Positions 14,219 through 59,877 of a DNA stretch of 64,000 bases are shown here, one piece after another. A program made the translations under genes and the position numbers. Each line of letters begins with the position of its first letter. Position 1 is the first letter of the stretch. The DNA is taken from NCBI GenBank assembly GCA_016792805.1, contig JAEUHX010000087.1, positions 76,955 to 140,954 on the forward strand, in the 5' to 3' direction. Below the pieces are notes generated by a model. It worked only from the letters and a program-made list of their open reading frames with translations. It was not told the origin of the DNA and did no database searches. Source of the DNA: Planctomycetota bacterium (GTDB lineage Bacteria; Planctomycetota; UBA1135; JACQFD01).

Positions 14219-17200
14219 CTAGCCGCCGAAAGCGTCGATCTCCAGCTTCTCGATCGAGAGGAAACTCGGGTTCGCGAGTTGCGCCGGGCGCGAGAACAGA
14301 ATCACCGCACGGACGAACTTCGGGCTCGAGATCGAGAGATCTGTAAGCCTCTGCGACCACACCGTTCGAGAGTTCGGATCCTCCTGGCCCTGCGAGTTGG
14401 CGCGGGAGCCCTGGAAGAAGACCTGGAACGGCAGCGGGCCGCCGAGAGCGAACGTCCCGGTCGTGCCATTCAGCACATCATTATTGGCTGCGTCGTCCTG
14501 CACGAGAATCTTGTCACCCGTGGTGGTCTTGATCGTCAGCCGATAGCGCAGGAGCGTGTTGAATGAAGTATTGAGGTCGATCTTATAAAAAATCGACTGG
14601 GCGCCGCTGAAATCCGTCACCGTGTTGGGGTTGCTCACCTGGCCGTTGCTGTTGATGCCGCTGAACGGCGTCGGGTCGAGAATCGCGCTCGAGGCCGGAG
14701 TGATTCCGTTGGGATTCGGAACGGGGGAGCCTGTGCCCACCTGGACGAATGCTCGACCGTTGCCACCGTTTCCACCGCGCACGCGCACCGCCTGCCCGCC
14801 GGCTCCCGCCGTTCCGAGCAAGAGCGGAGCTGCGGCGGCAGAAGCGTTCAACGGACGACCGTCACCGCCGAGTCCACCTCGCACCGAGACTGCGCCATTG
14901 ATCAGCGACAGCGTCCCGGGGGTCTGAATGACGAGCGCACCGCCGCCACCGCCGCCACCGGGGGCCATGCTGTGGCCAAAGAAGTTCGAGCTAATCGTGA
15001 GACAGAGCGGGGTCTGGGTATTCGTCGGGTGCGTGTGGTGATCACCGCCATCGCCACCACCGGCATCGATTCCAGCCACGGCGTTTACCGTGATGCCGCG
15101 GCCCGCCTGGAGCTGCATCGCACCGCCGCCGCCACCGCCCGCCGCGCCAACCGACAGGATCGGAGCCACGGTGGTGGGTTGCACCGCGCCATTCCAGGTG
15201 GCGGAGCCGCCGAGCGCAATATTTCCGGCCGTTCCAAAGATGTTGGTTCCGCCGCCGCCGCCACCTGCGGCGCCGCGCAGCAACGCAAAGTTGCCGATGC
15301 CGTCCGCGCCGAAGTTCGGCTGATTGACGAGCTGGCCCTTCGCCCCGGCCGTTCCGACCGGCACGAGCGGATAGACCGCAGCGCCAATGCTGGCGTTCGA
15401 AAGAACCTGGGGCGGGTTCGGCGGTGCGAGCTTCGTCGCGAAGTTCGGCGGAGCGATCAGGCCCGCGCCATTGTTGCAGCTGGCCGTCACAGAGCCGGTG
15501 GTCTCCGTGCACCAACCTCCGGCTGTGCCATCCTCGAAGTGGCTTGCACCACCGCCACCGCCGCTGCCCATCTGGAGGCTCGCGCCGAGCGGGCCACTGA
15601 CGCCGTTCTGGAACTGACCGACGATTCCCTCGCAGAGCGTGTCGTTGTCGACGTTATCGAAGATGAAACCGACGCCAGGAGTCTGGAACACGTTCGAAAA
15701 GATCTCGAAGGGCGTCGTGAGGACGTTGATCACGGGGTTGCCCTTCGTGCCGCCTCCCGGCGTAGCCGGTTGATTGGACACAGTCGATCCGCCCTTGGCC
15801 GCGGTTCCGCTCGACCCATTGAAGGACGTAAAGGCTGCCACGAGCGCATTGAGCTGTGGGCTGCCGGCAACGAGAGGCGTATTGATCGGCAGGTCGCCGC
15901 CATCGCCGCCATCGCCTGCCATGGCCCCGCCGCGGGCGCCGGTCTTCCCGACGATGTACTGCGGGAAGGCAGTCCAGGTGTTGAGCGGATCTCCGCCAGC
16001 CTTCGAAGTGCACGGCGTATTGAATCCTGCGAAGTCAATATTCTGCTGAGCCGTGGGCGATTGCGGAGAGCCATCGAGGCCTCGGACCGACAGCGTCGAA
16101 TTCGCTGCGATCGTGGCTGCGCCGCGGACAAAAATCCGGGCCGGATTGTTTCCTTCGAAACGCACCGTGCGCGATTCCGTGCCGTCTCCAACCTGGAGCG
16201 ACGCGAACTGATAAATACCATCCGAGATCGTCACCTCCGAACCGGCCAGCGACTCTTTGGTGGCAATCGTCAGCGGCGTGCGCTTCACAGTCGCCGTCGA
16301 TACCGCGACGCCGTCCGTTGCGATGGCGCCGAAATTGGCATTGTTAAAATCGTTGGCCGTGCTCGCCACGAAATCGCCATGGGTGCCGGAACCGCCTCCG
16401 ACGCCCGGGACGAGAACGCCGGGATTGGCGGCGCTATTCCACATGTTGGCGCCTGAGCGCTGCGCGTCCTCGCCAAGGTTGTCCCCGAAGTTTTCTGTAA
16501 TGGTAAACGGAGCGCCCACGGAGCTCGTTGTCTTGAACTTCAGAACCTGCCCGCCTGCGAGCGTATTGCCGCCCAGATCCTTGATCAGCGCCGAATTCAT
16601 AACTACCACAATTCGACGCGATCCCGTCGGTCCGGGCCCGGGGAAATCCGTCGGATGCGTGAAGCTGACCGTGGTGGTCTGATTCGTAGAGTTGAAGCTG
16701 ATGTCCCAAGTCCCCTGGATATCGATCTGATCCTGGAAATCAGCAGGTGTGTCGGTTTCTCCGTCGAGATCGACCTTGACCGCCATTGAGTTGCTCGTGC
16801 CCTGGATTTTGTTCACCAACGTCGACGCATCCATGATGTCGTCGAACTCAATCTCGATGGGGGTGTTCACCGGCGCCGCGTTGATCTGCGCCGGAGTCGG
16901 GATCAGGAGCGCCGCGCTCGGGCTGCCCGGCTTCACATCCGCGAGCTGATTTGTAACGATCACATTGGTGTCAACGGCAGCTGTATTGTTCTTGCCGTTG
17001 ACGGAGCGGATCGTGTTGCCCTGCCCTGCTGGAATCCGAATGCGATAGGTGCGGTTCGGGGAGAATCCGTAGATCACGTTGCCGCTCGAATCGAACGACA
17101 CCTCGGGGATGAACGTGACTTTGTTCCCGGCGACCTTGCGAATTCCAGCGGGCTCGCCGCCGCCGCCGCCGCCCGTGTCGACCTCCACAATATTGAGCGT

Positions 17201-17515
17201 CTCCGCGGTGACGGACGACTCAAGCACGGGCGCATTGAAGGTGAACACGATCTGAGTGCTCTGCTGCACCACGTTCGACGCGCCGCCGCAGGGCGCACCG
17301 CCGAGGGAGCAGGAAACGACGGCGAACGAAGTGCTGCCGCCGCCGCTGCCGCCGTTTCCGCCAGTCGTCACGTTGTCATTGTTGAAGAGCGAGGAGCCGC
17401 CGCCGCCGCAGCCCGAGAGGGCTACACAAAGCACGGCGGACGCGAGCGCGGTAACTGCTCTCGATGCGTCCGTCGGCAGGAATCGTTGAACAAGCTCGAA
17501 GGTTCGCTGAGTCAT
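14219..17515 (-). CDS. Giant surface lipoprotein A: SbsA-Ig-like N-terminal domains, glycine-rich beta-helix-like core, conserved C-terminal module
   Basis: ORF 14219..17596, probable start MTQRTF at 17515. Lipobox LSGC is followed by GGGGSSLFN. Contains a Big_5/SbsA-Ig-like segment (IVFTFNAPVLESSVTAETLNIV...TYRIRIP) and poly-Gly motifs such as APGGGGGGGALVIQTPGTLSLINGAVSVRGGLGGDG. Paralogous to 32851-36297. Confidence 0.8.
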   Translation of the reverse strand: MTQRTFELVQRFLPTDASRAVTALASAVLCVALSGCGGGGSSLFNNDNVTTGGNGGSGGGSTSFAVVSCSLGGAPCGGASNVVQQSTQIVFTFNAPVLESSVTAETLNIVEVDTGGGGGGEPAGIRKVAGNKVTFIPEVSFDSSGNVIYGFSPNRTYRIRIPAGQGNTIRSVNGKNNTAAVDTNVIVTNQLADVKPGSPSAALLIPTPAQINAAPVNTPIEIEFDDIMDASTLVNKIQGTSNSMAVKVDLDGETDTPADFQDQIDIQGTWDISFNSTNQTTTVSFTHPTDFPGPGPTGSRRIVVVMNSALIKDLGGNTLAGGQVLKFKTTSSVGAPFTITENFGDNLGEDAQRSGANMWNSAANPGVLVPGVGGGSGTHGDFVASTANDFNNANFGAIATDGVAVSTATVKRTPLTIATKESLAGSEVTISDGIYQFASLQVGDGTESRTVRFEGNNPARIFVRGAATIAANSTLSVRGLDGSPQSPTAQQNIDFAGFNTPCTSKAGGDPLNTWTAFPQYIVGKTGARGGAMAGDGGDGGDLPINTPLVAGSPQLNALVAAFTSFNGSSGTAAKGGSTVSNQPATPGGGTKGNPVINVLTTPFEIFSNVFQTPGVGFIFDNVDNDTLCEGIVGQFQNGVSGPLGASLQMGSGGGGGASHFEDGTAGGWCTETTGSVTASCNNGAGLIAPPNFATKLAPPNPPQVLSNASIGAAVYPLVPVGTAGAKGQLVNQPNFGADGIGNFALLRGAAGGGGGGTNIFGTAGNIALGGSATWNGAVQPTTVAPILSVGAAGGGGGGAMQLQAGRGITVNAVAGIDAGGGDGGDHHTHPTNTQTPLCLTISSNFFGHSMAPGGGGGGGALVIQTPGTLSLINGAVSVRGGLGGDGRPLNASAAAAPLLLGTAGAGGQAVRVRGGNGGNGRAFVQVGTGSPVPNPNGITPASSAILDPTPFSGINSNGQVSNPNTVTDFSGAQSIFYKIDLNTSFNTLLRYRLTIKTTTGDKILVQDDAANNDVLNGTTGTFALGGPLPFQVFFQGSRANSQGQEDPNSRTVWSQRLTDLSISSPKFVRAVILFSRPAQLANPSFLSIEKLEIDAFGG

Positions 17516-19843: not shown

Positions 19844-20560
19844 TCAGTTCACAGTTGTCCAGACCTGGCCGTCCATCCCAAGCTTCGAGGGAAGGGTGTT
19901 CGCGGTCGGCTGGATAATTGAGTTTGTGACTCCGCCCGAAGCGAATGCGGCGGAGGGCGCAGGGGCTGCGACTCCGGTGTAGATGCCACCGACGTTAAGC
20001 ATCTGCAGAAGCTCCCCGCCCTGATTGGCAAAGAAGACTCGATTGCTCGAGTTCCCTTGGCTCACGGGCCAGGCGTAGGCGCACCAGGTTGCCTCGCATC
20101 CATCCGGGTCCGGAAGGTTCGCAGGATCGGCCCCGCCCGTGGCAGCCTCGGCAACGCCGAGACCCGCCGCATTGGGAAGCCAGATCTGGAACAAATAGCC
20201 GGAGCGCTGAACTCTCGCGCTCACGACGTTGCCGAAGGAGCTCGAAGCCACCGGCGGCTTCATCTTCTCCGTAGCGGAGACGATTTGTGTTGTTCCGTTA
20301 AATGTGCGAACAAATGCAGCGCCTGCGAGCTCCCCGAAATTGGCGAACTCACCGACTCCGTCGCCGTCCCCATCGATAATGGCGGCAGCCTTCGCCTGTG
20401 CTTGGCTCGACATCAGCTGCCGCAGGGTCGAGATCGCCGCCGACTCGTTGGCTGCCTGCCGCGCCGACAGGAGATTGGGAACGGCGAGTGCGGCGATGAT
20501 TGCAACAATCGCAATGACGATCATGAGCTCGATTAGTGTGAAGCCGCGGTTCCCTCGCAT
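19844..20560 (-). CDS. Type IV pilin / pseudopilin paralogue 2 (prepilin-type N-terminal methylation domain)
   Basis: ATG at 20560 with GAGG 9-10 nt upstream. MRGNRG|FTLIELMIVIAIVAIIAALAVPNLLSAR is a class III signal with Gly-1/Phe+1/Glu+5. About 55-60% identical by eye to 20688-21419. Confidence 0.85.
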   Translation of the reverse strand: MRGNRGFTLIELMIVIAIVAIIAALAVPNLLSARQAANESAAISTLRQLMSSQAQAKAAAIIDGDGDGVGEFANFGELAGAAFVRTFNGTTQIVSATEKMKPPVASSSFGNVVSARVQRSGYLFQIWLPNAAGLGVAEAATGGADPANLPDPDGCEATWCAYAWPVSQGNSSNRVFFANQGGELLQMLNVGGIYTGVAAPAPSAAFASGGVTNSIIQPTANTLPSKLGMDGQVWTTVN

Positions 20561-20687: not shown

Positions 20688-21419
20688 TTACTGGACGTTC
20701 GACCAAACGTTCGTGTCCATGCCGAGCTTGGTGGTCGTGGTCACGGCCAACGGCTGATTGATCGCACCCGCGGTGCCGCCCGAAGCGAACGCAGCGTCCG
20801 CCGCCGGCGCGGTTGTGCCGTTGTACGGAGCCGCACCGTTATTGAGGCATTGCAGCACGTCACCCTGCTGATTCACGAAGAATGCACGGTTGCCGCTGTT
20901 GCCGCGGTTAATCGGCCAGGCATAGGCGCACCAGGTGGTCTCGCAGAGGTCCGGCGACAAAGTACCCACAAGCGACGTCGCACCCGCACCGCTCGCGTCT
21001 TCCTTGCTGCCGATGCCGGTCGCATTGGGCAGCCAGATCACAAAGTTGTAACCAGAACGCGACACATAACCGTTCGCGTCAACGTTGCCGAACGCTCCCG
21101 ACAGAACCGGGGGCGTCACCTTCGTCGTCGCGCTGATCACCTGTGTCGTGCCGTTGAAGGCGCGCACGAACGACCTGCCGGAGAGCTCGGCAAAGAAGCC
21201 GTACTCACCCGTGCCATCTCCATCGCCGTCGATCACGCCCGAGGCCTGCACCTGCGCTTGCGCGGAGGCGAGGTTGCGAAGCGTCGCGACGGCGGCCGTC
21301 TCGTTCGCCGAGAGGCGAGCGGACAGGAGGTTCGGAATCGCGATCGAGGCGATGATCGCAATAATCGCGACCACGATCATGAGCTCAATCAGCGTGAAAC
21401 CCTTGTTCCCCTTCTTCAT
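20688..21419 (-). CDS. Type IV pilin / pseudopilin paralogue 1
   Basis: MKKGNKG|FTLIELMIVVAIIAIIASIAIPNLLSAR. AAGGAG lies 10 nt upstream. ATGA overlap with the upstream TPR gene stop. Contains a DGDGDGTGEY loop and CETTWCAYAWP. Confidence 0.9.
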   Translation of the reverse strand: MKKGNKGFTLIELMIVVAIIAIIASIAIPNLLSARLSANETAAVATLRNLASAQAQVQASGVIDGDGDGTGEYGFFAELSGRSFVRAFNGTTQVISATTKVTPPVLSGAFGNVDANGYVSRSGYNFVIWLPNATGIGSKEDASGAGATSLVGTLSPDLCETTWCAYAWPINRGNSGNRAFFVNQQGDVLQCLNNGAAPYNGTTAPAADAAFASGGTAGAINQPLAVTTTTKLGMDTNVWSNVQ

Positions 21420-22336
21420 CGAACCGGTTCTCCTTTGCTTGCCGGCGGGATCTCGTTCCCTCCGGATTTCTTACCTTCGAGCATCGATGGCGCCCCTCCA
21501 CTGTGGAGAGTTACCACGAATTCCCTGAGGTCGTCAGGGATGACTCCCTGCGCGACCCACGCTTGCCAAACTTCCGCGTCGCTTCGCACCGCAGCAGCAA
21601 GCTGTTGCTTGAGCATCGGCCTCAGGACTCGGAGGTCTTCGAGCCCGCTATCGGCATTGCCCAGCTGTATCTTTAGCTTCGCAGCTTGGTAGCAAGCGTG
21701 GGGGTCCTCCTTTCCGAGGGCTGAAAGAATTTCCAGCGCCCCTTCCACCTGCCCCAGCTGCGCAGCGCGGAGCGCTGCAGAGATCGAGAGCTGCTTGTCC
21801 GGCCCCGCTCCGCGGCCAGCAGAAAGATATTTCTGCGCGGCCTCGTCCATTCGCCCGCATGCTTCCTCGATCTGAGCGGACACGAAGCAACATTTTTGTA
21901 CGGTCTCGGCGTTCGACGCGCTCTGCGCGAGCACGACCTGCTCGCGCGCCTGTTCGAGGTCGCCCGCCCTCAAGCGGCTCGCGGCGAGAGCCACACGGAT
22001 CTCGCCGCGTTGATCGGCGTTCGCCGCCAGCGAGAGCGCCTTTTTATAACAGTCTTCTCCAACGCTTCGATCTCCAATCTGCAATGATGCGTGCGCTTTC
22101 ACGAGCAGCGAGTTCAAGTCCCTCGGATCGCGGGCGAGCGCGCGCTCCGCGCTTTCGAGCGCCGGCGAGTAGAGTCCGAGGGAGAGCTGGAGTACGGCGA
22201 TGTCCGCCGGGGAGACCTCCTCGAGCCGCCGATCACGGGTCCGCCAGCCTCCGTAGGCAAGAAGACCCGCAATCGTGCAGCCGAACCCGTAGAGAGCAAG
22301 GCGCTTCGAGAGGGTTGGATTCGTGAACATCGACAT
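21416..22336 (-). CDS. Membrane-anchored TPR-repeat protein
   Basis: 306 aa. N-terminal hydrophobic span LALYGFGCTIAGLLAYGGW, then Ala/Leu-rich TPR-like helices. Its ATG immediately follows the pilC stop. Confidence 0.65.
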   Translation of the reverse strand: MSMFTNPTLSKRLALYGFGCTIAGLLAYGGWRTRDRRLEEVSPADIAVLQLSLGLYSPALESAERALARDPRDLNSLLVKAHASLQIGDRSVGEDCYKKALSLAANADQRGEIRVALAASRLRAGDLEQAREQVVLAQSASNAETVQKCCFVSAQIEEACGRMDEAAQKYLSAGRGAGPDKQLSISAALRAAQLGQVEGALEILSALGKEDPHACYQAAKLKIQLGNADSGLEDLRVLRPMLKQQLAAAVRSDAEVWQAWVAQGVIPDDLREFVVTLHSGGAPSMLEGKKSGGNEIPPASKGEPVR

Positions 22337-23569
22337 TTAGTGAGAGTGCGCCAGCTGCTCCTGGAGCTTGAAGATCGGCAGGAACACCGCGAGCACAATT
22401 CCGCCGACCACAAAACCCATGACTCCGATCATGATCGGCTCGATCATGGATGTGAGCCCCTTGACGGCAGCTTCGACCTGCTGGTCATAAAAGTGCGCAA
22501 TTTTCTCGAGGAGCGTGTCGAGGGCACCCGTGCGCTCACCGATCGAGATCATCTTGACCACCATGGGCGGGAAGACCTTGGACTGACCGAGCGGAGCGGA
22601 GAGCGTTTCACCTTGGCGAACGCTCTCGCGCGCCGAGAGCACGGCGGCCGAAATCACCTTGTTGCCCGCAGTCTGTGCCACGATGTCCATCGCGGCAAGA
22701 ATCGGCACACCGGACTTCACAAGCGTGGCGAACGTCCGCGAAAAGCGCGACAGTGCTACTTTTCGAAAGAGCGTACCGAAGACCGGCATCCGGAGAAGTG
22801 TGGCGTCGAAGAGGTAGGCGCCTCGCGGTGTCTTCTTCGCCACCATGATTCCGGTCGCCGCCGCAGCTCCAGCCCCGACGAGCAGGTACCAATACCCTTT
22901 ACAGAAGAATGCCGCATCCATCACGAACAGCGTGAGGCCGGGAAGCTCGATGTCGAGGCTGTCGAACACCGGCTTGAACTGCGGCACGATTCCGATCATG
23001 AGGAATGCCGCAATTCCGAGCACGAGCACGAGCGAGATGACGGGGTAGGTCATTGCGCTCTTCACCTCTCGGATCAGCTGAGCGCTCGCCTCGAGGTACT
23101 CGGCAAGGCGAACAAGAATGATATCCAGCTGACCCGATGCCTCGCCCGCGCGCACCATGTTTACATAAAGCTCAGGAAAAACCTGCGGGTACTTCTCGAG
23201 AGCCTTCGAGAGATCGACACCTCCCCGCACAGATTCGACCACGCCCGACAGCACGGCCTGGAAACCGGGCGACTCGGCTTGCTCGCGCTGAATCTCGAGC
23301 GCCTCAAGAATCGGGATACCGGCACCCACCATCGTGGCGAGCTGCCGAGTAAAAACCACCAGTTCCTCGCGCGTGACTCCCTTGCGGGAAGCCTTCGCGA
23401 AAAGCTCCTTCATGGTTTTTGTCGCATCGTCGCCCCCGCTCGAAACCTCCATTACTGTGAGGTTCTTCCGCTTCAGCTCCGACATGGCGTCCGACTTCGT
23501 CTTCGCAGAGATCGTTCCCGTGAGCGTGGCTCCTGCCTGATCGCGTGCGCGGTATCGGAAGCTCCCCAT
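22337..23569 (-). CDS. pilC: Type IV pilus / T2SS platform protein PilC/GspF
   Basis: ORF 22337..23704. ATG at 23569 (MGSFRYRARD) is preceded by AGAGGGA. Two T2SSF repeats (FTRQLATMVGAGIPILEAL... and FSRTFATLVKSGVPILAAM...). Confidence 0.9.
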   Translation of the reverse strand: MGSFRYRARDQAGATLTGTISAKTKSDAMSELKRKNLTVMEVSSGGDDATKTMKELFAKASRKGVTREELVVFTRQLATMVGAGIPILEALEIQREQAESPGFQAVLSGVVESVRGGVDLSKALEKYPQVFPELYVNMVRAGEASGQLDIILVRLAEYLEASAQLIREVKSAMTYPVISLVLVLGIAAFLMIGIVPQFKPVFDSLDIELPGLTLFVMDAAFFCKGYWYLLVGAGAAAATGIMVAKKTPRGAYLFDATLLRMPVFGTLFRKVALSRFSRTFATLVKSGVPILAAMDIVAQTAGNKVISAAVLSARESVRQGETLSAPLGQSKVFPPMVVKMISIGERTGALDTLLEKIAHFYDQQVEAAVKGLTSMIEPIMIGVMGFVVGGIVLAVFLPIFKLQEQLAHSH

Positions 23570-23712: not shown

Positions 23713-25134
23713 CTATGCCATCGGCATCGGGAGCGCCTCAACCGTAGTGCGCCCGCGTGCGAGGGCTCGGAAGGCGCTGTCGCGCATCCGAAGCCCCGGC
23801 ACGCGCTGGTCGAGTGCGCTGCCGGTGAGACCTTCCCGAATCGCGAGAGCTGCCGCCTCGGGAGGCGAGAGCACCTCGCTAATGAGAACATTCCCGAGAT
23901 ATCCGCTCGAGCATCGGTCGCATCCCGTCGCTCGATAAAAGGAGGCTGCCGCGACCTCGCTCTCCGGAAACCCGCCGAAGCTCATCGAGAGCTCGTCGGA
24001 ACCGACAGGCTCTCGGCAGCTCGGGCAAAGCGCCCGCACGAGACGCTGCCCCACGAGGACGGGCCGCGCGGCAGCGAGCTCCACGGGGTCCACGTCGAGG
24101 TGCCTCAGTGCGGAGACGGCGTCGACGGCGCCGCGCGCCGAGACCGCAAGAATCACGTGGCGGCCGTCAGCCGCGGCACGGAAGGCGCGAACCGTGCCGT
24201 GCTTATTATGAACTCTGCCGATGAGTAAGACATCGGGGTCGTGGCGCATGGCGTCGTCGACGGCGTCTTCCCGGGAACTCGGCGACTGCGAGCTGCGAAG
24301 CGAGATCCAGGACCAGTTCTCCCGCTCCGGAGCAGGTCCGATCAACGACACAATCAGCTTCCCCTGGACAGCCGCTTCCGCTCCCAGTGCGAGAAGTGTG
24401 GATCGCGCACCTTCCGCGATCGGAACGCCAAGAACGATCATTCCGCCATGCGGGCGTGACAACGCGGTCCTGAGCTCCTTTGCTACGTGCGGCTCGAGCC
24501 CCAGGGCGTCGAGGCCGTCGAAGCTCCTGCGATGGAGCACCCGCCCGACATAACGAATACCTCCGGACCAAGCGAGGATGTCGAACTCAATGTTCGACAG
24601 GCCCGTCGGCGTCTCGACTCCACAAGTGACTGCTGAGGGCATTGGCTGGTCGGGGCGGATCCCAGCGGCGCGGCGCAGCTGTGCTTCGAGCGCGCCCGCC
24701 GCAAGCTCTCCGAGAATCCGCCGCTCGCCGCCCATCCGCGCGGTAGCGACCATCCCAGAATTTGTGATATCGAAGTGGATCGTATGTGCTCCAGCTTCGA
24801 TCGCATCGGTGAGAATGTCTGCGAGTGAAGATGCTGGGGTCGCCGACGCCGGCTCCGCTGCCGCCGGCACCGGCGGCTTGGCCGAAGGCGGATCGGCCTG
24901 CAGTTCTCCCGGAGATGTCATCATTTGCTCATCGGCGAGGACTCGATCGAGTTCGTCGAGCAGCGAACTCGGTGCAGCGCTCGGCTCACTGGAACTCTGC
25001 GTCGGCGTCGGCAGGGCCGCCCCCGCTGGCTGCTGCACCAGGGGCGGCGGCGGGAGCGCCGCGGAGTCCTCCATGGTCCGAAACACTTCGCACTCGTCCA
25101 GTGCGCGCCCGATTCCCCCGCCCGGCGCGTTCAT
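23713..25134 (-). CDS. GspE/PilB-family protein with degenerate ATPase motifs (pseudo-ATPase); Zn tetracysteine retained
   Basis: 473 aa. The fold markers are collinear with GspE/PilB: AHTIHFD in place of ASDIH, DPDVLLIG, and CPSC...CDRC. Walker A is GVPIAEGARST (no GK[ST]). The Asp box is SLIGPAPE. Walker B reads DPDVLLIGRVHN, where Glu is replaced by Arg. The His box is DGRHVILAVSARG. ATGA overlap with the pilT stop. Confidence 0.8.
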   Translation of the reverse strand: MNAPGGGIGRALDECEVFRTMEDSAALPPPPLVQQPAGAALPTPTQSSSEPSAAPSSLLDELDRVLADEQMMTSPGELQADPPSAKPPVPAAAEPASATPASSLADILTDAIEAGAHTIHFDITNSGMVATARMGGERRILGELAAGALEAQLRRAAGIRPDQPMPSAVTCGVETPTGLSNIEFDILAWSGGIRYVGRVLHRRSFDGLDALGLEPHVAKELRTALSRPHGGMIVLGVPIAEGARSTLLALGAEAAVQGKLIVSLIGPAPERENWSWISLRSSQSPSSREDAVDDAMRHDPDVLLIGRVHNKHGTVRAFRAAADGRHVILAVSARGAVDAVSALRHLDVDPVELAAARPVLVGQRLVRALCPSCREPVGSDELSMSFGGFPESEVAAASFYRATGCDRCSSGYLGNVLISEVLSPPEAAALAIREGLTGSALDQRVPGLRMRDSAFRALARGRTTVEALPMPMA

Positions 25135-26204
25135 CGCACAGACTCCTTTCGGAGAAGATTATTGAGCTCCGTCTGGTCGGGTGTTGCCGAAAGAGCCTCG
25201 TCGTAGGAGATGAGGTTCTGGCGATACAAATCCGCCAGGGATTGGTTCATGGTCCGCATCCCAAGGCGCCCGCCGGTCTGTATGAGCGAGTAGATCTGGT
25301 GAGCCTTGTTCTCGCGAATGAGCGCTCGAATGGCGGGGTTCACCACCATGATCTCCGCCGCCAGAACTCGTCCTCGGCCGTTCGTGCGCGCAAGGAGCTG
25401 CTGACAGAACACAGCCTGAAGCGAGAAGGCGAGCTGAGTTCGAATTTGTTGCTGCCGATCGGCGGGGAACACGTCCACGATACGGTTGATCGTCTGGACG
25501 CAATCCGATGTATGGAGAGTCGCAAAAGTAAGATGTCCGGTCTCCGCGAGCGTCAAGGCGGCCTCGATCGTCTCGGGATCGCGCATTTCGCCGATGAGCA
25601 CGACGTCGGGGTCCTCGCGGAGCACGGCGCGAAGCGCCTGGTTGAATCCGTGGGTGTCGGTGCCTACTTCGCGCTGATTCACGAGGCAGCCCTTGTTCCG
25701 ATGGAGGAACTCGATCGGATCCTCGACTGTAATAATGTGCTCCTGCCGCTGCGCATTAATGTGATCGACGAGCGAAGCGAGCGTCGTGCTCTTGCCCGAT
25801 CCAGTGGCGCCAGTGACGAGGACGAGCCCCTTCGGCAGCGAGCAGATTTCTTCACAAATGCGCCTCGGCAGACCAAGCTTTTCGAACTCATGGATCTCGT
25901 AGGGAATCACGCGCAGTACGGCTGCGATGGAGCCCCGCTGCATGAAGACGTTCGTTCGAAAACGGCCGAATCCGGAGAACCCGAATGAGCAGTCGAGTTC
26001 GAGGTTCTTCTCGAAGCGTGCGATCTGGTCCGGCGTGAGGATCGAGTAGATCAGCTTCCGAGCGATCTCCGGAGTGAGCGGATCGAACTCGGTCAGAATG
26101 AGCTTGCCGTCGACACGGATTCGCGGAGGCGAGCCAACGGCCAAATGAAGATCCGAACCACCACGCTGCACGAGCAGCGTGAGCAACTCCTCCATCGAGA
26201 TCAT
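25131..26204 (-). CDS. pilT: Type IV pilus retraction-type ATPase PilT
   Basis: ORF 25131..26360, start MISMEELL at 26204. Intact GATGSGKST, DPDVVLIGEMRD, TGHLTFATLHTS and the PilT signature AIRALIRENK. Confidence 0.9.
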   Translation of the reverse strand: MISMEELLTLLVQRGGSDLHLAVGSPPRIRVDGKLILTEFDPLTPEIARKLIYSILTPDQIARFEKNLELDCSFGFSGFGRFRTNVFMQRGSIAAVLRVIPYEIHEFEKLGLPRRICEEICSLPKGLVLVTGATGSGKSTTLASLVDHINAQRQEHIITVEDPIEFLHRNKGCLVNQREVGTDTHGFNQALRAVLREDPDVVLIGEMRDPETIEAALTLAETGHLTFATLHTSDCVQTINRIVDVFPADRQQQIRTQLAFSLQAVFCQQLLARTNGRGRVLAAEIMVVNPAIRALIRENKAHQIYSLIQTGGRLGMRTMNQSLADLYRQNLISYDEALSATPDQTELNNLLRKESVR

Positions 26205-26323: not shown

Positions 26324-28390
26324 TTATTCTTCGGCTTTGTGCCCGTGGGCTGCGGCCCACTCGGAAACGATCTGCTCCTGGAGCGTCGAGGGGACCTGGT
26401 CGTAGTGTGAGAACTCAAGGGTGAAGGACCCCTCCCCCGCCGTCACGGAGCGCAGCTGCGTTGTGTATTGCTGCAACTCCTTGAGCGGCACCTGGGCCTT
26501 CACGATCGCTTGGTCGCCCACGGAATCCATACCCATGATGCGGCCGCGCCGGGTATTGAGGTCTCCGATCACGGCGCCCATCAGCGCTTGCGGAATCACA
26601 ATAGTTACATCCATGATCGGCTCGAGGAGGATCGGCTTCGCCTTGATGAATGCGTCCTTAAATGCGTTGCGCCCGGCAATCTCGAATGAAATGCCGTCGG
26701 AGTCGACCTCGTGATACTTGCCGTCGTAGACCGAGACGCTCACGTCAATCACTTCGCAGCCCGCGATGATTCCCTTCTCGAGAACGCTGCGCATCCCCTT
26801 CTCGACAGCGGGAAGGAACTGCCTCGGGACGGATCCGCCCACGACATCATCCACAAATTCGAACCCGGCGCCGCGTTCGCGCGGCTCGACGCGGCAATAG
26901 ATCTCCCCGAACTGTCCGCGTCCGCCCGATTGTTTCTTATGTCGATAGTGCCCCTCTGCCTTGCCTCGGATTGCCTCCTTGTATGCAATCTTGGGCAGAT
27001 GGGTCGACACCTCGACTCCGTACATCCGGTGGAGACGGTGCAGCTGGGTGTTGATCTGCAGATCGCTCAGACCCTCAATAATCAGCTCATGGGTCGTCGC
27101 GTCGCGGCGCAGGTGGAGTGAGGGGTCCTCGGCGACGATCTTGCGCAAGGTCTCAGCAATCTTGCCTTCGTCCTCGCGGCGCTTCGGTTCGATCGCCCAA
27201 GAGACCGTGGGCTTCGGAAGCTCCGGCTTCTTGAAATGAAACACGACGCCGCGATCTTTGCCTTCAAGGGCTGGCAGGAGCGTGTCGCCGAAGTGCAGCG
27301 GAGCCTGCATCTTTGATATCGCAATGAGCTGGCCGCTCACGCAATGATCCGTCGGCTTCCGATCCTTTCCGAAAAGTGTAAGAATCCCGCCGATCTTTAG
27401 CGGCTTTCCCGAATGGGGATCGGCGATGGGAAGGTCGTGGTCGAGCGTCCCGCGGGTCACGCGCACGTAGTGGATCTCGCCGATCGCCTTATCGGTAACT
27501 GTCTTGAAGACGAATCCGGCAAAGGGCTCAGTCGTGCTCGGCGAAACCTGCACTTCCTTGCCATCGGGCCCGACTCCAACGTGCGCGCCGAAATCAACCG
27601 CGCGCGGAAAGTACAATTCCACAAATCGAGCGAGCTCGGGGATGCCAAGCCCAGTCGCTGAGTTCACAAAAAACACCGGTACGACGGTCTTGGCGACCAT
27701 GGCCCGGGCAATGGCCTTCTCGAGAACCTCGGGGGCAACCGAGCCCGATTCCAAGTAGCTCTCCATGAGCTTCTCGTCTGCTTCGACGACGCGCTCCACG
27801 AAGGTGGCGTAGAACCCGGCTGCCCGATCCCTCAGCCCCGCGTCGGCATCGGCCGCCGGCCGGAGGACATCGACGACCTGCTTGGCGTTCGGACCGAGCG
27901 CGTTGGGAAGCGTGACCGGAACACATCGGTCGCCGAACTGCGACTGAATCGCCTCGAGCACAGTGTCGAGTTCGACGTTCGGATGGTCCATTTTGGTGAC
28001 CACGATGGCGCGCGCGACGCCGGCCGCCTCGGCGCGTCCCCACATCGTCCTTGCGTGGAACGGGATCGTTCCAACGGCAGGGATACAGATCGCCGCGGTC
28101 TCCACCACAGAGAGTCCCGCGATCGCGTCCGCGATGAACTCGGGATACCCCGGGGTATCAATCATCTCCACGATGCCGTTCTTCCGCGGCAGGTGCAGCA
28201 CCGCGAGCTGGAACGAGTGCTTCTTTTCTTTCTCTTCCGGCTCGTAATCCGCGACTGTCGTGCCGTCGGCTACGGAGCCTTTCCGAGTGATGGCGCCGTA
28301 CGCGTGGGCCAGGGATTCCGCAAGCGTTGTCTTTCCCGAGTCGGCGGGGCCGACGAGGGCAAAAGTACGAACATCGATGACCTGAGCCAT
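26324..28390 (-). CDS. Elongation factor G paralogue with non-canonical GTPase motifs
   Basis: 688 aa and collinear with EF-G through domains I-V (YHEVDSD, LEPIMDV, DLNTRRGRI). G1 is GPADSGKTT. G2 reads KKHSF in place of RGITI. G3 is DTPGYPEF, with Tyr where the catalytic His sits. G4 is TKMD. AAGGAG lies 9 nt upstream of the ATG. Confidence 0.9.
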   Translation of the reverse strand: MAQVIDVRTFALVGPADSGKTTLAESLAHAYGAITRKGSVADGTTVADYEPEEKEKKHSFQLAVLHLPRKNGIVEMIDTPGYPEFIADAIAGLSVVETAAICIPAVGTIPFHARTMWGRAEAAGVARAIVVTKMDHPNVELDTVLEAIQSQFGDRCVPVTLPNALGPNAKQVVDVLRPAADADAGLRDRAAGFYATFVERVVEADEKLMESYLESGSVAPEVLEKAIARAMVAKTVVPVFFVNSATGLGIPELARFVELYFPRAVDFGAHVGVGPDGKEVQVSPSTTEPFAGFVFKTVTDKAIGEIHYVRVTRGTLDHDLPIADPHSGKPLKIGGILTLFGKDRKPTDHCVSGQLIAISKMQAPLHFGDTLLPALEGKDRGVVFHFKKPELPKPTVSWAIEPKRREDEGKIAETLRKIVAEDPSLHLRRDATTHELIIEGLSDLQINTQLHRLHRMYGVEVSTHLPKIAYKEAIRGKAEGHYRHKKQSGGRGQFGEIYCRVEPRERGAGFEFVDDVVGGSVPRQFLPAVEKGMRSVLEKGIIAGCEVIDVSVSVYDGKYHEVDSDGISFEIAGRNAFKDAFIKAKPILLEPIMDVTIVIPQALMGAVIGDLNTRRGRIMGMDSVGDQAIVKAQVPLKELQQYTTQLRSVTAGEGSFTLEFSHYDQVPSTLQEQIVSEWAAAHGHKAEE

Positions 28391-28460: not shown

Positions 28461-28500
28461 GAGAAAAAAGAAGGGTCCAGACTCTACCGAGTCCGAACCC
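28461..28500 (-). terminator. Rho-independent terminator after the OmpA-domain lipoprotein gene
   Basis: Minus strand: GGGTTCGGACTC-GGTA-GAGTCTGGACCC-TTCTTTTTTCTC. This is a 12-bp stem whose two non-Watson-Crick positions are G.U on the minus-strand RNA but C.A on the plus strand. Confidence 0.65.
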
Positions 28501-28596
28501 TCTTTGGGCACTGGGTCGAAGGCTGCTGTCAGAGCCTCCGTCAAGGCGCCTACCGCGGGAGCAGGGATTGAATCTCTGGCTGCGTTCAGGACGGGA

Positions 28597-29553: not shown

Positions 29554-30714
29554 TTATCCGTGGAGGCCGGAGAACGCCGCAAATACGCTCAGAACTTCGC
29601 GCCGATTCAAAAGCACAATTGCAGCCCCCGCCGCGAGGAAGGGCCCGAAAGGAATCAGCCGCCCCGCCGCATTCGCGACGGACCAGGCGGTCGGCCTCCG
29701 TTCGATGCGGTGGCTCCGCGGCCGTTGACGAGCCCGTCGACGCTGCACCAGAAAAACGTAGAGGCGCGCGATATTGGCAATCCCGAGGAGCGCTCCAAGC
29801 ACCGAGGCCACCGCAAATGCCAAGAGGGACCCCTCGGGTCCTACGCAACCGCCGATTGCTCCCTGCAGCTTCACATCTCCAAATCCCATCGCTTCGCGCT
29901 CATTTCGGATGCGGAGTTCACCGCCGGGCTCAATTGGCTGGGCTGTATCGCGAACCAGCACGGGATTTGTGGCGGTCGGCGCCTTCCACAGAATCTGCTG
30001 GTCCTCGACGAGCCGCTGGACCTCGGCCGAAGAGCGCTTCATACCGGCCGATGCCAAGTAAGTGTCCAGGCGACGGGGCCTTGCGTCGGCCGGAACCTGG
30101 AGAATCTCAACGCTCGAGTAGGCCCATGTGCCTGCTGCACGGATAAGTGCCACACTGGCTGCACCCGTTCCGACGCCGAGCACGCTCACCACCAGCGCGC
30201 GCAGCCGCTCATGCTCAATCCAGGGTGCGAGCTGGCGTGCGCCCCAAGTGTCGGCCAAGAGATGTGGAGCGATGAGCGCCAGCAACGGCCCGAAGAGGAG
30301 TCCCGGAATGGTGATCTCGTCAGGGAGGATCGTGAGTTCGAGATCGATCAGAGAGAGCGCGAGCAGCGCCGCGAGTGCAATCCAGATAAAGATCAGTGCC
30401 GGCGAATAGCCTGGGCCGGGTTGCATCCACCAAGCCCACAAGAAGAGCAAACTGCAGGAAAGCTCCACGACGGGATAGCGCGCCGAAATCGGAGTTCTGC
30501 AGCGCCGGCATCGGGCACCCAGCAGCACCCAGGCGACCACCGGAAGATTGTCATACCAAGCGATGTCCGCGCTGCAGCGAGGACAGCGGGAGCGACCGAG
30601 TAGCGATCGCCAGCCGCCCTCCGGCAAGCGATGGACGACAACGTTGACGAACGAGCCTACAGCCAATCCAAAGAGGGCCGCGAATATGCCGAATACAAGA
30701 GTGACGCCGTCCAC
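29554..30714 (-). CDS. pilD: Prepilin peptidase / N-methyltransferase (A24 family) with large cytoplasmic insertion
   Basis: 386 aa with a GTG start. CPRC...CRRC zinc motif. First catalytic Asp in LSLIDLE (D124), second in GFGDVKL (D280), and a C-terminal IPFGPFL motif. Confidence 0.85.
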   Translation of the reverse strand: MDGVTLVFGIFAALFGLAVGSFVNVVVHRLPEGGWRSLLGRSRCPRCSADIAWYDNLPVVAWVLLGARCRRCRTPISARYPVVELSCSLLFLWAWWMQPGPGYSPALIFIWIALAALLALSLIDLELTILPDEITIPGLLFGPLLALIAPHLLADTWGARQLAPWIEHERLRALVVSVLGVGTGAASVALIRAAGTWAYSSVEILQVPADARPRRLDTYLASAGMKRSSAEVQRLVEDQQILWKAPTATNPVLVRDTAQPIEPGGELRIRNEREAMGFGDVKLQGAIGGCVGPEGSLLAFAVASVLGALLGIANIARLYVFLVQRRRARQRPRSHRIERRPTAWSVANAAGRLIPFGPFLAAGAAIVLLNRREVLSVFAAFSGLHG

Positions 30715-30783: not shown

Positions 30784-32586
30784 TCACCTGGTCGAGATTT
30801 CGAAGACGGCTCGGTCGACAACCGGAGCCACGAGTTCGGGGCCACTGCCGGCGCGCAGGAGTGAGATCTCGATTTGAAACTGCATCCACTGTCCGGGTGG
30901 GAGTCTCTCGGCCGGATCGGCCCATGGGGTTGCCGACCGGGGATCCATTGCGGCGGTCTCCGGATTCGGGGCCGGAAGGGAGCGTGCCGTGCGCACGCGG
31001 AGCGCCACGTCGCCGCTTCCCATGGCCGATTCGGCTCTTGCACCAACGATTGTGACAAGGCGGCCACCCATGCGGATCCACTTGGATGTGCTCACATAGC
31101 GAAGATTTGGCCGGGAGCGGAAGCTGGTGGCGTCGAGGAGCGGTGTGCGCTGGAACTCGCGCTCTTTCACTCCGCTCAGATCACCTGCAAGCCCCATCCC
31201 CGCAGGTGCAATGATCCGAAGCTTCGTGCATTCGATGCGGGCGCTGGCGGCGACCCTCACCGCGCCCCCTGCCACGAGGAGCAAGGTCCCAGGAGTTGTG
31301 ATCCTTCCCGATATGTGGAGATCTCCTCCTGCGACAAGGGCGAGATCCCACGGCCCCATGAGACCATCGACTCGCTCCCAAGCGGGCTCGTGGGTTCCCT
31401 CTCGTCTCGCGGAGAGCACACCGCGCAGGTCGAGACTGCCGGCGCATCCAATGCAGGACGGCAGCACAAGCCTCCCTTCGTCCGTTGGAAGGGAATCAAT
31501 CGAAGAGGCTTGGAGCAACCTCGTTCCGAGCTCGCCGCGCAACGCGATGTGGCCATCGCGACCGTCGCCGGCGGCCTTCGGGAAATGCGCGCGCAGCGCG
31601 CCGTCTCCTGCCCATGTGGCCGTTGCCGTCTGCGGGTCGAATGTCTCCGGCGTCGACCGGTCATGAACATAGAGAAATTCTTCAATAATTGAACTCGGCT
31701 CATAGCTCGGCGCCGGGATGATTTCGAATCGCGGCTGTCGGCCGTCCAGAAGGCGGCACGGATTGCCGCCGAAGTCGGTGACCCGATCGGACACTTCAAG
31801 CGAAACCGCCGAGTACCCGTCCAGCGGCGCCACCGTTCGGAGCTCGATGCGCGCAGAGGAAGTGTCGTTGCGGAGCACCGGATCCAACAAGGCAATGGGC
31901 CGACGACTGCCGCGGTCGTCGATCCCGATGAGCTGAAAATTGTCTGCGGTCACTCGATGGGGCGCCAACGGCTCATCTGTGGCAAGCTCAAGCGCTGCGC
32001 CGCGATGCCATAGGACACTTGCGATCTCGCCTCCGCCCGCAGCCGGATCGCTGGCACCATAGACCGTGAGCACGGGCCCTTTCCACGGAGAATGGTCCAC
32101 GAGAAGGGCGAGCGTGGAGTCCTGGCGCAGCGGAGCTGTGGTGAACTCGAACCGATGGGATTTCGAGAGCACCTGCCCGCGTGAGGACCGAACTCCCGAC
32201 GCCCTCGGAAAGCCCATGATCTCAACGGTATAGGTTCGCCCCGGCTGAAGTCCTCCATCGGCGTAGTCGACCCGGGAAGGGAGCGCGGGCAAGAACCTTA
32301 CTCTTCCGTTGGGAAGCACGTCGAGCTTCCCAGCAGTGACCCGCTCTCCGGGCGCGGAATCGGCGAGAGCGATTCGAATGCCGCCGCCATGGACGCTTCC
32401 GGGATCGACCGGCTGATTGAAGACCCAGGTCAGCTCGCCATTGACGGGGTGCCCCGTGGCACCGCCCTGGAGGAAATTGGTGAGGTCGAAAGGAGCCTCA
32501 GCGGGCGGCTGGCAAGCAGTGAGCGGACAGGCGACCAATGCCAGCGCGCAGAGCAGAATCCTGAAATGAGAGCGGTCCACGGACAC
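30784..32586 (-). CDS. Lipoprotein D: SbsA-Ig-like domains plus beta-helix-like region; short paralogue of the giant lipoproteins
   Basis: 600 aa with a GTG start. Signal ILLCALALVACPLTAC. Ig-like segment LTWVFNQPVDPGSV...GRTYTVEI. C-terminal QWMQFQIEISLL...PVVDRAVFEI resembles the tails of lipoproteins A, B and C. Confidence 0.75.
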   Translation of the reverse strand: MSVDRSHFRILLCALALVACPLTACQPPAEAPFDLTNFLQGGATGHPVNGELTWVFNQPVDPGSVHGGGIRIALADSAPGERVTAGKLDVLPNGRVRFLPALPSRVDYADGGLQPGRTYTVEIMGFPRASGVRSSRGQVLSKSHRFEFTTAPLRQDSTLALLVDHSPWKGPVLTVYGASDPAAGGGEIASVLWHRGAALELATDEPLAPHRVTADNFQLIGIDDRGSRRPIALLDPVLRNDTSSARIELRTVAPLDGYSAVSLEVSDRVTDFGGNPCRLLDGRQPRFEIIPAPSYEPSSIIEEFLYVHDRSTPETFDPQTATATWAGDGALRAHFPKAAGDGRDGHIALRGELGTRLLQASSIDSLPTDEGRLVLPSCIGCAGSLDLRGVLSARREGTHEPAWERVDGLMGPWDLALVAGGDLHISGRITTPGTLLLVAGGAVRVAASARIECTKLRIIAPAGMGLAGDLSGVKEREFQRTPLLDATSFRSRPNLRYVSTSKWIRMGGRLVTIVGARAESAMGSGDVALRVRTARSLPAPNPETAAMDPRSATPWADPAERLPPGQWMQFQIEISLLRAGSGPELVAPVVDRAVFEISTR

Positions 32587-35800: not shown

Positions 35801-36297
35801 AAGGTCGAGGTCTTTCCGACGACGAGCCCTTCCCCCTTTGTGGAAAGGACCGTTGTCGCTCCCGCCTGGGTGCTCGACGGAATATTGATCACATAGGGGA
35901 TTCCGCCGGCCTGGAGCCCGCCGCCGCCCGTCGAAGACGGGCAGGTGGGCTGGAAGATAACCTTCTTTTTGTTGGCATTATCGAACGAGAAGGTTCCGAG
36001 GGCCGGCACCGCAGTTCCCTGCTGAACGATGGAAATCGACGCGGGCGTCACCGTGTCCGGCCGGACCTCTTTGTTGAAGAGAATCTCGATGGGGCGATTG
36101 ACCTCCCAATCCTGTCCGGGCTGAGGCAGGATCGATTCCACGAGGAAGTCGGCGCTGTCCGGCCCAGGATTCCCACCCGGATCGATCACATCATTGAACA
36201 AGGACGAGCCGCCGCCACCGCAGCCGCTCAGGAGGGCACTGGAAGCGGTGCCGATCAGCAGGCTGAGAGAGAGACGCGCGTTGCGGGAGAGGGTCAT
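32851..36297 (-). CDS. Giant surface lipoprotein B (paralogue of A)
   Basis: ORF 32851..36483, start MTLSRNARLSLSLLIGTASSALLSGC at 36297, followed by GGGGSSLFN. Ig-like domain (IEILFNKEVRPDTVTPASISIV). Poly-Gly motifs KGAGGGGGGGILSIQALGKVSVAGTISASGGNGAAG. C-terminal KRFIRFTVTF...VRFLKVPFQFN. Confidence 0.8.
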   Translation of the reverse strand: MTLSRNARLSLSLLIGTASSALLSGCGGGGSSLFNDVIDPGGNPGPDSADFLVESILPQPGQDWEVNRPIEILFNKEVRPDTVTPASISIVQQGTAVPALGTFSFDNANKKKVIFQPTCPSSTGGGGLQAGGIPYVINIPSSTQAGATTVLSTKGEGLVVGKTSTFVTKPAGSGVFYDPKVNESPQVTRVVFVTPNSAGDLVESDFTAGATIPTNKFVGPSVYFDVTFNQPVDPAATNITSSNISLQFNTTGSSFASIPVSVALIENCTAAGAKVRVTPLGLLPSGRRIRFLISQGFSDITGETALFPTAIPASFGTEPIVETASTPDYDAIVESFDSAAREDQNPGFGFPAAEWNSQGFLEAGFSFGGQPTDNDLEVLSGQTIFVDTSAATLTLKSAIGSPVQQTFVNGRIFLRRLRVFNGGRLVGQGLNPLQIFANETVQVDAGGQILVTGADASDVQTLLTAAQFSEPGGAGICGGGSGGVGNPVTSQSSVKGGQGAGPFNVLNGGGFGGESALVPVVNGQQCFENEDRHPAGGGGGSHTTAGEKGNDGPTTASFTIGSCIAPQGVSAVNPATFPQGGAPGPLNFVTTSPTDDFVGTTIVTRGTCITTGSTTQVRATSPIFNTSDVGRFIAIYRTAGTWEDTLAACTTGTTALDPTQCFRSKVLVRQISSVTGDLAAVNFSAPLPVTAATGDLVVLMGRGDNLTGEIVTPLGGQGGGGGGNAIGSTTITNPNFGAVDKKGAGGGGGGGILSIQALGKVSVAGTISASGGNGAAGENTIFLDRIGGGSGGGAGGTIIIQSADSIDAFIGATSGTILARGGRRGGGANSGQQDPVPPTTSLGLGHGGRGGKGLVQLHAPINPATGLYKTAFLGGGTASAQPLPANFDPAPLLLLPGFGSQSRVRSTWFDTGLPLAAGKPTYEFAGLALPASGLGPVGKILTDAQGFVAPIVGVSGTVNASSVTANSITLAKLDLIAGGNLKAVEPKTMILDRVRVGSNAGTVIGATESGNNIVLTTDNGSSGNPTALNAGLSGTPAWQLVTRSFEVSTFTSAGEINDFLPPSTSSFAAVQIQFQGADADATGNVNLASIVPTAVQDSTGVGTSDMSILTGKRFIRFTVTFDVALGGAVTASSSKPRVRFLKVPFQFN

Positions 36298-36461
36298 GTG
36301 CAGAAATCTATTCCGAGTAGTGCGACGCGAAGGTTCTGTGTCGTTGTGGGCCGTGAGGCTCGGCGAGGCGATCTCAGTGACTCCTTTTGGAGTGGAACTC
36401 ACAGATCGTTTTTCGTCTGTCGGCGGCGAGCCGCCGATGCGCTCGCGCCGAAAGCCGATGT

Positions 36462-41882: not shown

Positions 41883-41893
41883 GAGCCCGGACC

Positions 41894-59799: not shown

Positions 59800-59877
59800 T
59801 TCTGACCTCCGAGACGCCGGCTGGACGGGAGTGTCCTGGGACAAGCCGGCGGCGGTATTCGTTAGGATGTCTTGAAT

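Follow-up and report, generated by a model that had tools for sequence, protein, structure and literature searches.

Type IV pili are held to be unable to extend without PilB, their extension engine. What, then, does a pilus operon do with a PilB that has lost its motor parts? The question is raised by a stretch of 64,000 nucleotides (the window) from a Planctomycetota bacterium (assembly GCA_016792805.1, contig JAEUHX010000087.1, positions 76,955 to 140,954), in which the gene between pilT and pilC of a type IVa pilus (T4aP) operon encodes a PilB/GspE-type protein with degenerate motifs. A first-pass annotation, made from the letters alone, had called this protein catalytically dead and translationally coupled to an intact PilT. 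According to our analysis, the product, here named pseudo-PilB, is very probably a selected, catalytically dead orthologue of PilB. The best overall explanation, to which we give a probability of roughly 0.6, is that the operon PilB has turned into a pseudoenzyme and is kept as a non-catalytic part of the T4aP machine.

The open reading frame (ORF) had been read as collinear with the GspE/PilB secretion ATPases, and profile and pairwise comparisons agree with this reading. The Pfam T2SSE family (PF00437) matches residues 105-466 of pseudo-PilB (101 bits, E 5.4e-29, profile positions 13-366 of 370), and a phmmer search against PDB sequences gave a collinear alignment of residues 106-467 to Thermus PilF, Vibrio EpsE/GspE, and Geobacter PilB. 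The scores for the NCBIfam equivalogs were 91.7 bits for TIGR02538 (PilB, cut-off 675.65) and 91.3 bits for TIGR02533 (GspE, cut-off 630.25). In the AlphaFold2 model, residues 100-473 are confident (predicted local distance difference test, pLDDT, mostly 85-96 by block), and the top Foldseek matches to this model in the PDB were PilB (5tsh), PilF (5oiu), and EpsE (1p9w) at E ~1e-26, while PilT and DotB structures ranked far below them. The fold of pseudo-PilB is that of a PilB N2 domain, C-terminal domain, and zinc subdomain, and the AHTIHFD block that had been assigned to an N2-like region lies within the N2-like domain. The first ~105 residues had been described as a probably disordered stretch in place of the usual N-terminal domains. 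This is correct as far as the low pLDDT of residues 1-100 and the loss of the GSPII/MshEN N1 domain are concerned (no PF05157 match in the Pfam scan), but the region is not featureless, as it carries two conserved motifs that form the only two short helices in an otherwise disordered part of the model. In NCBI records, two members of the family carry the label "hypothetical protein".

Judging from its alignments, pseudo-PilB is without any catalytic motif. Compared with live PilF (phmmer), it has GVPIAEGARST for G-PTGSGKS(F)T at Walker A, SLIGPAPE for TIEDPVEY at the Asp box, DPDVLLIGRVHN for DPDIIMVGEIRD at Walker B, and DGRHVILAVSARG for TGHLVIATLHTND at the His box; its LLIGRVHN aligns with LLGEIRD of the live orthologues, whose His box reads TGHxVLSTLHTND. 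The earlier claim that all nucleotide-handling motifs are lost therefore stands for Walker A, the Asp box, the Walker B Glu, and the His box, and it can be extended to the basic positions of N2, where live PilBs have QDG(R/K) and R(V/I)S and pseudo-PilB has SAVT and DIL instead. A regular-expression search of the whole protein found neither GK[ST] nor GxxxxGK[ST], and alignments to the PF00437 profile and to PDB sequences revealed no overlooked P-loop. Walker A, the Asp box, and the His box are lost in all seven full-length dead lineages. The Walker A site varies among the other dead lineages (GVRPGDEARDT, GAPPRHGVKTT, GAARGNDASAT, VASRGTGASDV, VSARGDSAHAT), and this absence of conservation among P-loop residues argues against a new nucleotide site. 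At Walker B, the GR pair is present in five dead lineages, and the entire motif, including DPD, is eroded in L097 and L098. Two exceptions occur within the dead family: the Walker B Glu is retained in a fragment (P0034), and a displaced K-T-T in the L005 group.

The origin of pseudo-PilB was traced by comparing operons across Planctomycetes. Related operons were located through PilT, which evolves slowly and served as a handle; 120 PilT relatives were found in Planctomycetes at 68-99% identity, with an intermediate group (P0196-P0201) at 75-78%, and contigs of these relatives, from metagenome-assembled genomes, were then read. Nine operons were compared, namely those of the window, L001, L002, L005, L006, L097, L098, L099, and L100, and they share the core order pilT, X, pilC, a membrane/TPR-like protein of ~290 amino acids, and pilin(s), where X occupies the position of pseudo-PilB. 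Genes for large Big_5 proteins, a prepilin peptidase, an OmpA-like protein, and an EF-G paralogue lie on the 5' side at most of these loci. X is motif-dead and ~470 amino acids long where PilT is 79-99% identical to that of the window (the window, L002, L001, L097, L098); it is also dead in L005 and L006, whose contigs include no more of pilT than its C-terminal end. In contrast, where PilT is 69-73% identical to the window's (L099, L100), X is a live PilB of 568 amino acids with MshEN and T2SSE domains and the motifs GPTGSGKST, TVEDPVEY, LLGEIRD, and TGHxVLSTLHTND. The TIGR02538 scores separate the two sets, with 34-121 bits for the other dead lineages, while the live orthologues reach 652 and 668 bits (cut-off 675.65). 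The presence of a live PilB in the same operon slot makes the dead protein the positional orthologue of the operon's extension ATPase.

An exhaustive HMMER search of 1.8 billion representatives returned only about seven clusters of close pseudo-PilB relatives. None of them has a canonical Walker A, and in those of full length Arg takes the place of the Walker B Glu. A pattern scan of JGI metagenomes (R[HN]DPD..) gave no match above 32% identity among the matches listed, which is uninformative on rarity because the pattern matches ordinary PilBs too. One further contig (L096; ENA ERZ1370068 contig_11296, 414 kb) has most of its operon genes fragmented, including those of EF-G, X, and pilC; the pattern resembles uncorrected errors of a long-read assembly more than pseudogenisation, and L096 was not used as evidence.

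Although X evolves four to five times faster in the dead clade than in the live orthologues, its gene is evidently retained by selection. Within the live clade, L099 and L100 share 84% identity in PilT, 83% in X, and 80% in PilC, whereas the dead-clade lineages, with the near-identical window/L002 pair excluded, share 79-88% in PilT, 24-43% in X, and 73-83% in PilC; the first pilin is 73-78% identical across the same lineages. The ratio of nonsynonymous to synonymous substitution rates (dN/dS) was calculated between the window and L002 (another metagenome, pseudo-PilB 86% identical), the sole pair close enough for this purpose. It was 0.109 for the whole pseudo-PilB gene (bootstrap interval 0.077-0.148), 0.061 for the folded part (residues 105-473), 0.08 for the N2-like domain, 0.03 for the zinc subdomain, and 0.36 for the Pro/Ala/Ser-rich linker of residues 21-104; in residues 1-20, dN was 0 and dS was 0.72. 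Such values point to purifying selection on the gene. Intact ORFs of 462-494 amino acids occur in the seven dead lineages at pairwise identities down to 24-43%, none of them frameshifted, so that the gene, with its dN/dS of 0.11, is intact and not decaying. For the rest of the apparatus, dN/dS was 0.009 (PilT), 0.011 (PilC), 0.057 (first pilin), and 0.026 (second pilin), and this range of 0.009-0.06 indicates that the apparatus is in use.

Across six independent dead lineages, few regions are as poorly conserved as the former nucleotide pocket; when conservation was scored in 15-residue blocks, the region of the N2 basic residues was second-lowest (0.29), and the lowest was the disordered linker at residues 31-45 (0.23). 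The four zinc-site cysteines (C370, C373, C405, C408) are invariant in every alignment, in dead and live sequences alike, and both halves of the zinc subdomain, together with the C-terminal GRT(T/S) helix, are the most conserved folded parts. The most conserved 15-residue block of the dead clade (0.66) is N-terminal motif 1, which forms a helix at residues 8-14 in the AlphaFold2 model. Its register matches that of the first MshEN helix of the live orthologues (KKLRGILEKAGKL), and hhalign placed residues 2-25 of pseudo-PilB onto residues 3-26 of the live N1 without significance (E 0.04, probability 1.3%); motif 1 is possibly, as a lead only, what is left of helix 1 of the lost MshEN/GSPII domain. 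N-terminal motif 2 forms a helix at residues 58-71 of the model, with Pro/Ala/Ser-rich disordered linkers on either side.

The start/stop overlap of pilT and the pseudo-PilB gene is real, as inspection of the junction (...GTG CGA TGA) confirmed, and a Shine-Dalgarno-like hexamer, AAGGAG, lies 8 nucleotides 5' of the pseudo-PilB ATG. The overlap had been taken to imply stoichiometric co-production of the dead PilB with PilT. The comparison does not support a special pairing on this ground: a 4-nucleotide ATGA overlap is found in four of the seven dead lineages (the window, L001, L002, L005) and a GTGA in L097, short gaps without overlap separate the genes in L006 and L098, and ATGA also joins pilT to the live PilB of L100. 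Because it is also present with a live PilB, the overlap is ancestral operon architecture, and on this reading of the junctions it carries no special meaning for the pairing of dead PilB and PilT.

PilT itself is fully canonical, as had been stated, with 494 bits to TIGR01420 and the motifs GATGSGKST, TVEDPIEF, LIGEMRD, TGHLTFATLHTSD, and AIRALIRE. Only three substitutions in PilT are specific to the dead clade (H246D, Q247R, T258S); for example, FPADRQQQ in this clade stands against FPAHQQQQ in all other Planctomycetes PilTs examined. With so few clade-specific changes there is no sign of PilT being remodelled for a new job, and this idea was dropped. A tblastn search of the 64-kb window with both proteins found no third T2SSE-type gene, in agreement with the earlier statement that the window encodes no live extension ATPase. 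As judged by its gene content, the window holds a complete T4aP gene set except for a live PilB.

The positions of the features are collected in Table 1.

Table 1. Positions of the pseudo-PilB gene, its motifs, and other features in the window; the last row refers to other contigs.
Feature	Position	Strand	Details
Pseudo-PilB gene	23713-25134	(-)	473 amino acids; motif-dead PilB/GspE-type; stop codon 23713-23715
N-terminal motif 1	25078-25113	(-)	Residues 8-19 IGRALDECEVFR; clade consensus RLRxALSECGLF, also given as (R)LRxALSECGLF
N-terminal motif 2	24937-24966	(-)	Residues 57-66 SLLDELDRVL; clade consensus SILEALDRV
N2-like domain	24490-24822	(-)	Residues 105-215, including AHTIHFD
Degenerate Walker A	24397-24429	(-)	Residues 236-246 GVPIAEGARST; no Lys, one extra residue
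Degenerate Asp box	24325-24348	(-)	Residues 263-270 SLIGPAPE; TVEDPVEY in live orthologues
Walker B region	24205-24240	(-)	Residues 299-310 DPDVLLIGRVHN; hydrophobic strand and DPD retained, catalytic Glu replaced by Arg
Degenerate His box	24130-24168	(-)	Residues 323-335 DGRHVILAVSARG; live TGHLVLSTLHTND
Tetracysteine zinc subdomain	23911-24027	(-)	Intact; C370-x2-C373 ... C405-x2-C408
ATGA start/stop overlap of pilT and pseudo-PilB gene	25131-25134	(-)	ATG = 25132-25134
pilT	25131-26204	(-)	Canonical retraction ATPase; 357 amino acids from MISMEELL; start 26195 in one gene caller
pilC/gspF	22337-23569	(-)	Platform protein; 410 amino acids; T2SSF 223 bits, TIGR02120 403 bits
TPR-like protein	21416-22336	(-)	306 amino acids; one N-terminal membrane helix; weak TPR matches
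Type IV pilin	20688-21419	(-)	243 amino acids; N_methyl motif
Second type IV pilin	19844-20560	(-)	238 amino acids
Prepilin peptidase	29554-30714	(-)	386 amino acids; A24_N_bact and Peptidase_A24; syntenic
pilMNO/secretin cluster	57868-63028	(-)	33 kb from the pilT/pilC operon
pilM	62000-63028	(-)	PilM_2 162 bits
pilN	61300-62055	(-)	ISVNLLPEE motif, INLLP-type
pilO-like	59878-61281	(-)	467 amino acids; PilO 34 bits
Secretin	57868-59844	(-)	Secretin 130 bits and GspD N0
EF-G paralogue	26324-28390	(-)	688 amino acids; all five EF-G domains; directly 5' of pilT
Strong terminator-like hairpin	28471-28502		Just upstream of the EF-G paralogue
Four large flanking proteins	14219-17515, 30784-32586, 32851-36483, 36511-40128	(-)	~600-1210 amino acids; syntenic
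Examples of the second motif-dead family	P0016 at L014:10001-11800; P0029 at L015:10001-11896		

What the gene is for can be weighed against this evidence. That pseudo-PilB is a functionless PilB remnant heading for loss is effectively refuted. Its evolutionary rate, four to five times that of the live orthologues, would suit such a fate, as would the absence of even the Walker B DPD from the most divergent copies (L097, L098); however, a dN/dS of 0.11 with an upper bootstrap bound of 0.15, seven lineages with intact ORFs of similar length and no stops or frameshifts despite 24% identity, and the specific motifs that are held (N-terminal helix, Cys4, C-terminal helix) all speak against it. It also seems very improbable that pseudo-PilB is a cryptic enzyme, in which nucleotide, or another ligand such as cyclic di-GMP (c-di-GMP), is bound or hydrolysed at a non-canonical site. 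This idea draws on the K-T-T that follows an inserted residue in one sub-lineage (GAPPRHGVKTT in L005/P0031, GAAPRHGAKTT in P0032) and on the resemblance, from a weak alignment, of the N-terminal motif to the start of MshEN, a domain that binds c-di-GMP in some live PilBs. All five motifs and the N2 basic residues are nevertheless lost, the former pocket has different residues in each lineage and ranks with the least conserved positions, and at most one short MshEN remnant is left.

PilT takes a larger part in the other accounts. In one of them, which the first-pass annotation had raised and which we consider unlikely, the genomes contain no live PilB, PilT powers pilus extension as well as retraction in the manner of CpaF in Tad pili, and the dead PilB serves as an obligatory adaptor or direction switch from PilT to PilC. 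PilT is indeed the sole live T2SSE-family ATPase in 64 kb with an otherwise full T4aP set, the dead PilB is kept beside it in seven of seven lineages, PilC and the pilins are so strongly constrained that filaments would still be made, and bifunctional motors have been established for type IVc pili (cited in review PMC11656802). Yet PilT, with its three clade-specific substitutions, shows no burst of change, and the pilT/X overlap is ancestral and occurs with live PilB too. To our knowledge, no T4aP PilT extends pili, and several PilB/GspE paralogues are common in Planctomycetes genomes. Quite improbable, too, is an arrangement along the lines of the mixed rings proposed in that annotation, in which pseudo-PilB forms hetero-hexamers with PilT, or stacks on the PilT hexamer, and tunes PilT activity. 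The two genes are adjacent and translationally coupled, PilT-dependent accessory ATPases are known (PilU, according to passages of PMC13584747 and 10.1101/2025.10.30.685630), and two-hybrid interactions of extension with retraction ATPases have been reported (review PMC11656802). On the other side, the coupling is ancestral, an identity of 24-43% in the dead protein against 79-88% in PilT is hard to square with a tight shared interface, and the N2 basic residues that would complete the neighbour's or the protein's own active site are lost.

We prefer to read pseudo-PilB as a retained, non-catalytic component of the pilus machine. The operon PilB would have lost its MshEN/GSPII N1 domain and all residues for ATP binding and hydrolysis in the ancestor of one Planctomycetes sub-clade, and pseudo-PilB would have been retained within an otherwise complete and conserved T4aP machine. 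It may dock at the cytoplasmic base of the machine (PilC platform, PilM) through its conserved surfaces and act there as a scaffold, placeholder, or regulator, for example by gating whether PilT, or a live extension motor, reaches PilC. As the pili are still to be extended, some ATPase must do the extension work, and the energy for pilin polymerisation would come from an ATPase other than pseudo-PilB. The most likely route would be duplication followed by degeneration, in which the work falls to a live PilB/GspE-type paralogue elsewhere in the genome, leaving the operon copy to be re-used; that pseudo-PilB is a scaffold or regulator, with the live extension ATPase encoded elsewhere, is an option that we narrowly favour. 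Over the dead lineages the P-loop drifts freely, whereas the N-terminal helix motif, zinc subdomain, and C-terminal helix are retained.

Several points weigh against the retained-component reading. The docking and the role of scaffold or regulator are predictions, as are the partner, the oligomer, and the location, and the live extension ATPase outside the window is hypothetical. Many PilB/GspE proteins need nucleotide for hexamer formation, so that the PilC-docking ring may not form from a protein unable to bind ATP. As a regulatory design, a placeholder that is always co-expressed would be unusual. None of the RNA runs searched contains the pseudo-PilB gene; the organism itself is present in bioreactors (runs X1-X7). 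The orthology of the dead protein to the operon's live PilB rests on synteny and junction architecture, with no sequence-specific signal; a sequence-based proof was tried and dropped, as the profile of the dead family ranked the L099 and L100 PilBs only 74th and 80th of 178 PilBs.

Among the neighbouring genes, pilC is syntenic in all loci. The TPR-like protein has orthologues in nine of nine operons and is fast-evolving in live and dead clades; from the charge distribution around its membrane helix, it is probably oriented N-in with a periplasmic TPR part. It was tried as a cytoplasmic, co-evolving partner of the N-terminal motif and rejected, since it evolves equally fast in the live clade (45% identity, vs 32-44% in the dead clade) and the charges flanking the helix point to a periplasmic TPR domain. 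The second pilin is present in five of five fully covered dead-PilB operons, whereas L099 and L100 lack it at that position. With its unusual length and a weak T2SSB-like match at the C-terminus, the PilO-like ORF may be a PilO-PilP-type fusion. The EF-G paralogue keeps its position in L001, L002, L097, L098, and L099, but not in L100; why a pilus operon should include a paralogue of a translation GTPase is not evident. Weak matches to the Big_5 Ig-like domain were found in three of the four large flanking proteins, and the one at 36511-40128 has no Pfam match; these proteins could be pilus-associated adhesins or secreted substrates. Two fused genes also lie on the minus strand of the window, one of LpxC and FabZ (42949-44241, LpxC and FabA-like domains, 430-amino-acid ORF) and one of aspartate carbamoyltransferase with a PyrI-type metal-binding C-terminal domain (40515-42158).

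A second motif-dead PilB-like family, of independent lineage, was also identified; its members (P0009, P0010, P0012, P0014-P0019, P0022-P0027, and P0029) have 600-670 amino acids and keep MshEN. Their four motif sites read PVAEGRSSTYYAL, SVERSVEYE, DTDVVAIDS, and RLVIATFAAGD. They occur in metagenome-assembled genomes of the Coriobacteriia type, where the operon order is PatA_N - CheR/TPR - REC - X - CheW - CheW - MCP - CheA - CheB, so that X lies between a response regulator and CheW and not in a pilT-pilC operon. PATAN-type regulators bind PilB1 in Synechocystis (10.1101/2021.06.11.447907), and the second family may link a Che-like pathway to pili as a signalling adaptor. It resembles pseudo-PilB in the PilB fold and in the replacement of the four motifs, and differs in its MshEN domain and its chemosensory locus. 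By analogy, it may serve as a precedent for dead PilB paralogues in a non-motor role, and as a second independent dead-PilB family it suggests a recurring evolutionary route. The best matches of the HMMER search outside the family, of ~1000 amino acids (P0033, P0035, P0036, P0038, and others), have two complete T2SSE modules per chain; they were considered as dead/live fusions, and this was ruled out, as they are tandem double PilBs with live motifs. The first module of P0035 reads GPTGSGTTT (Lys to Thr), and a ~200-residue helical region of no recognised family precedes it.

Pseudo-PilB is thus a well-defined pseudoenzyme variant of the pilus extension motor, and it is apparently previously undescribed: neither the 2024 review of PilB cofactors (PMC11656802) nor full-text literature searches yielded a catalytically dead PilB. 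The clade offers a natural experiment, in which the whole machine is constrained while the engine of the operon is made a non-enzyme, and sister lineages keep a live engine; for work on the phylum, genetic tools are available (PMC5394234). Pilus extension in this clade would be powered or controlled by some route other than the operon PilB. The contrast opens the question of which roles the body of PilB has beyond burning ATP, such as docking, gating, or signalling, and whether a non-cognate motor can extend a T4aP. Should the unlikely case hold in which PilT works alone, this would be the first T4aP machine to run on a single motor plus a dead paralogue. For annotation, the case is a warning that a motor assigned automatically from a "T2SSE/PilB" domain may in fact be dead.

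Compared with known systems, pseudo-PilB is closest to PilB/PilF/GspE (PF00437; TIGR02538, TIGR02533; 5tsh, 5oiu, 1p9w), with which it shares the N2 and C-terminal fold and the Cys4 zinc subdomain, the feature that separates PilB/GspE from PilT; with the PilB of related Planctomycetes it also shares the operon slot between pilT and pilC. Unlike these proteins, it has no Walker A Lys, Asp box, catalytic Glu, His box, or N2 basic residues, nor the MshEN/GSPII N1 domain, and the dead family scores 34-121 bits against equivalog cut-offs of 630-676. As all catalytic motifs and N1 are missing, pseudo-PilB was not classed among the PilB ATPases. In function, the closest analogue is FlaH/ArlH, which, according to passages of PMC5019145, acts on the hexameric motor ATPase FlaI of the archaellum, is co-encoded with it, and is required for assembly. 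Both are RecA-superfamily, non-motor partners of a type IV filament ATPase; however, FlaH is KaiC-like and has kept ATP binding, as described in the same passages, and it did not arise as a degenerate motor copy.

Extra paralogues on one machine are also represented by PilU, which depends on PilT, and by TfpB, a second extension ATPase in Acinetobacter (PMC11656802). Like pseudo-PilB, these PilT/PilB-family paralogues work beside a primary motor (PMC11656802, and for PilU also passages of PMC13584747), but PilU and TfpB are catalytically active, whereas pseudo-PilB is predicted to be inactive. CpaF, the single bidirectional ATPase of Tad (type IVc) pili (review PMC11656802), would be the model for one ATPase serving both directions, as in the case where PilT works alone. 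CpaF systems have neither PilT nor a dead PilB and use two platform proteins, which differs from the system of the window with its PilT, one PilC, and a PilB-derived pseudoenzyme.

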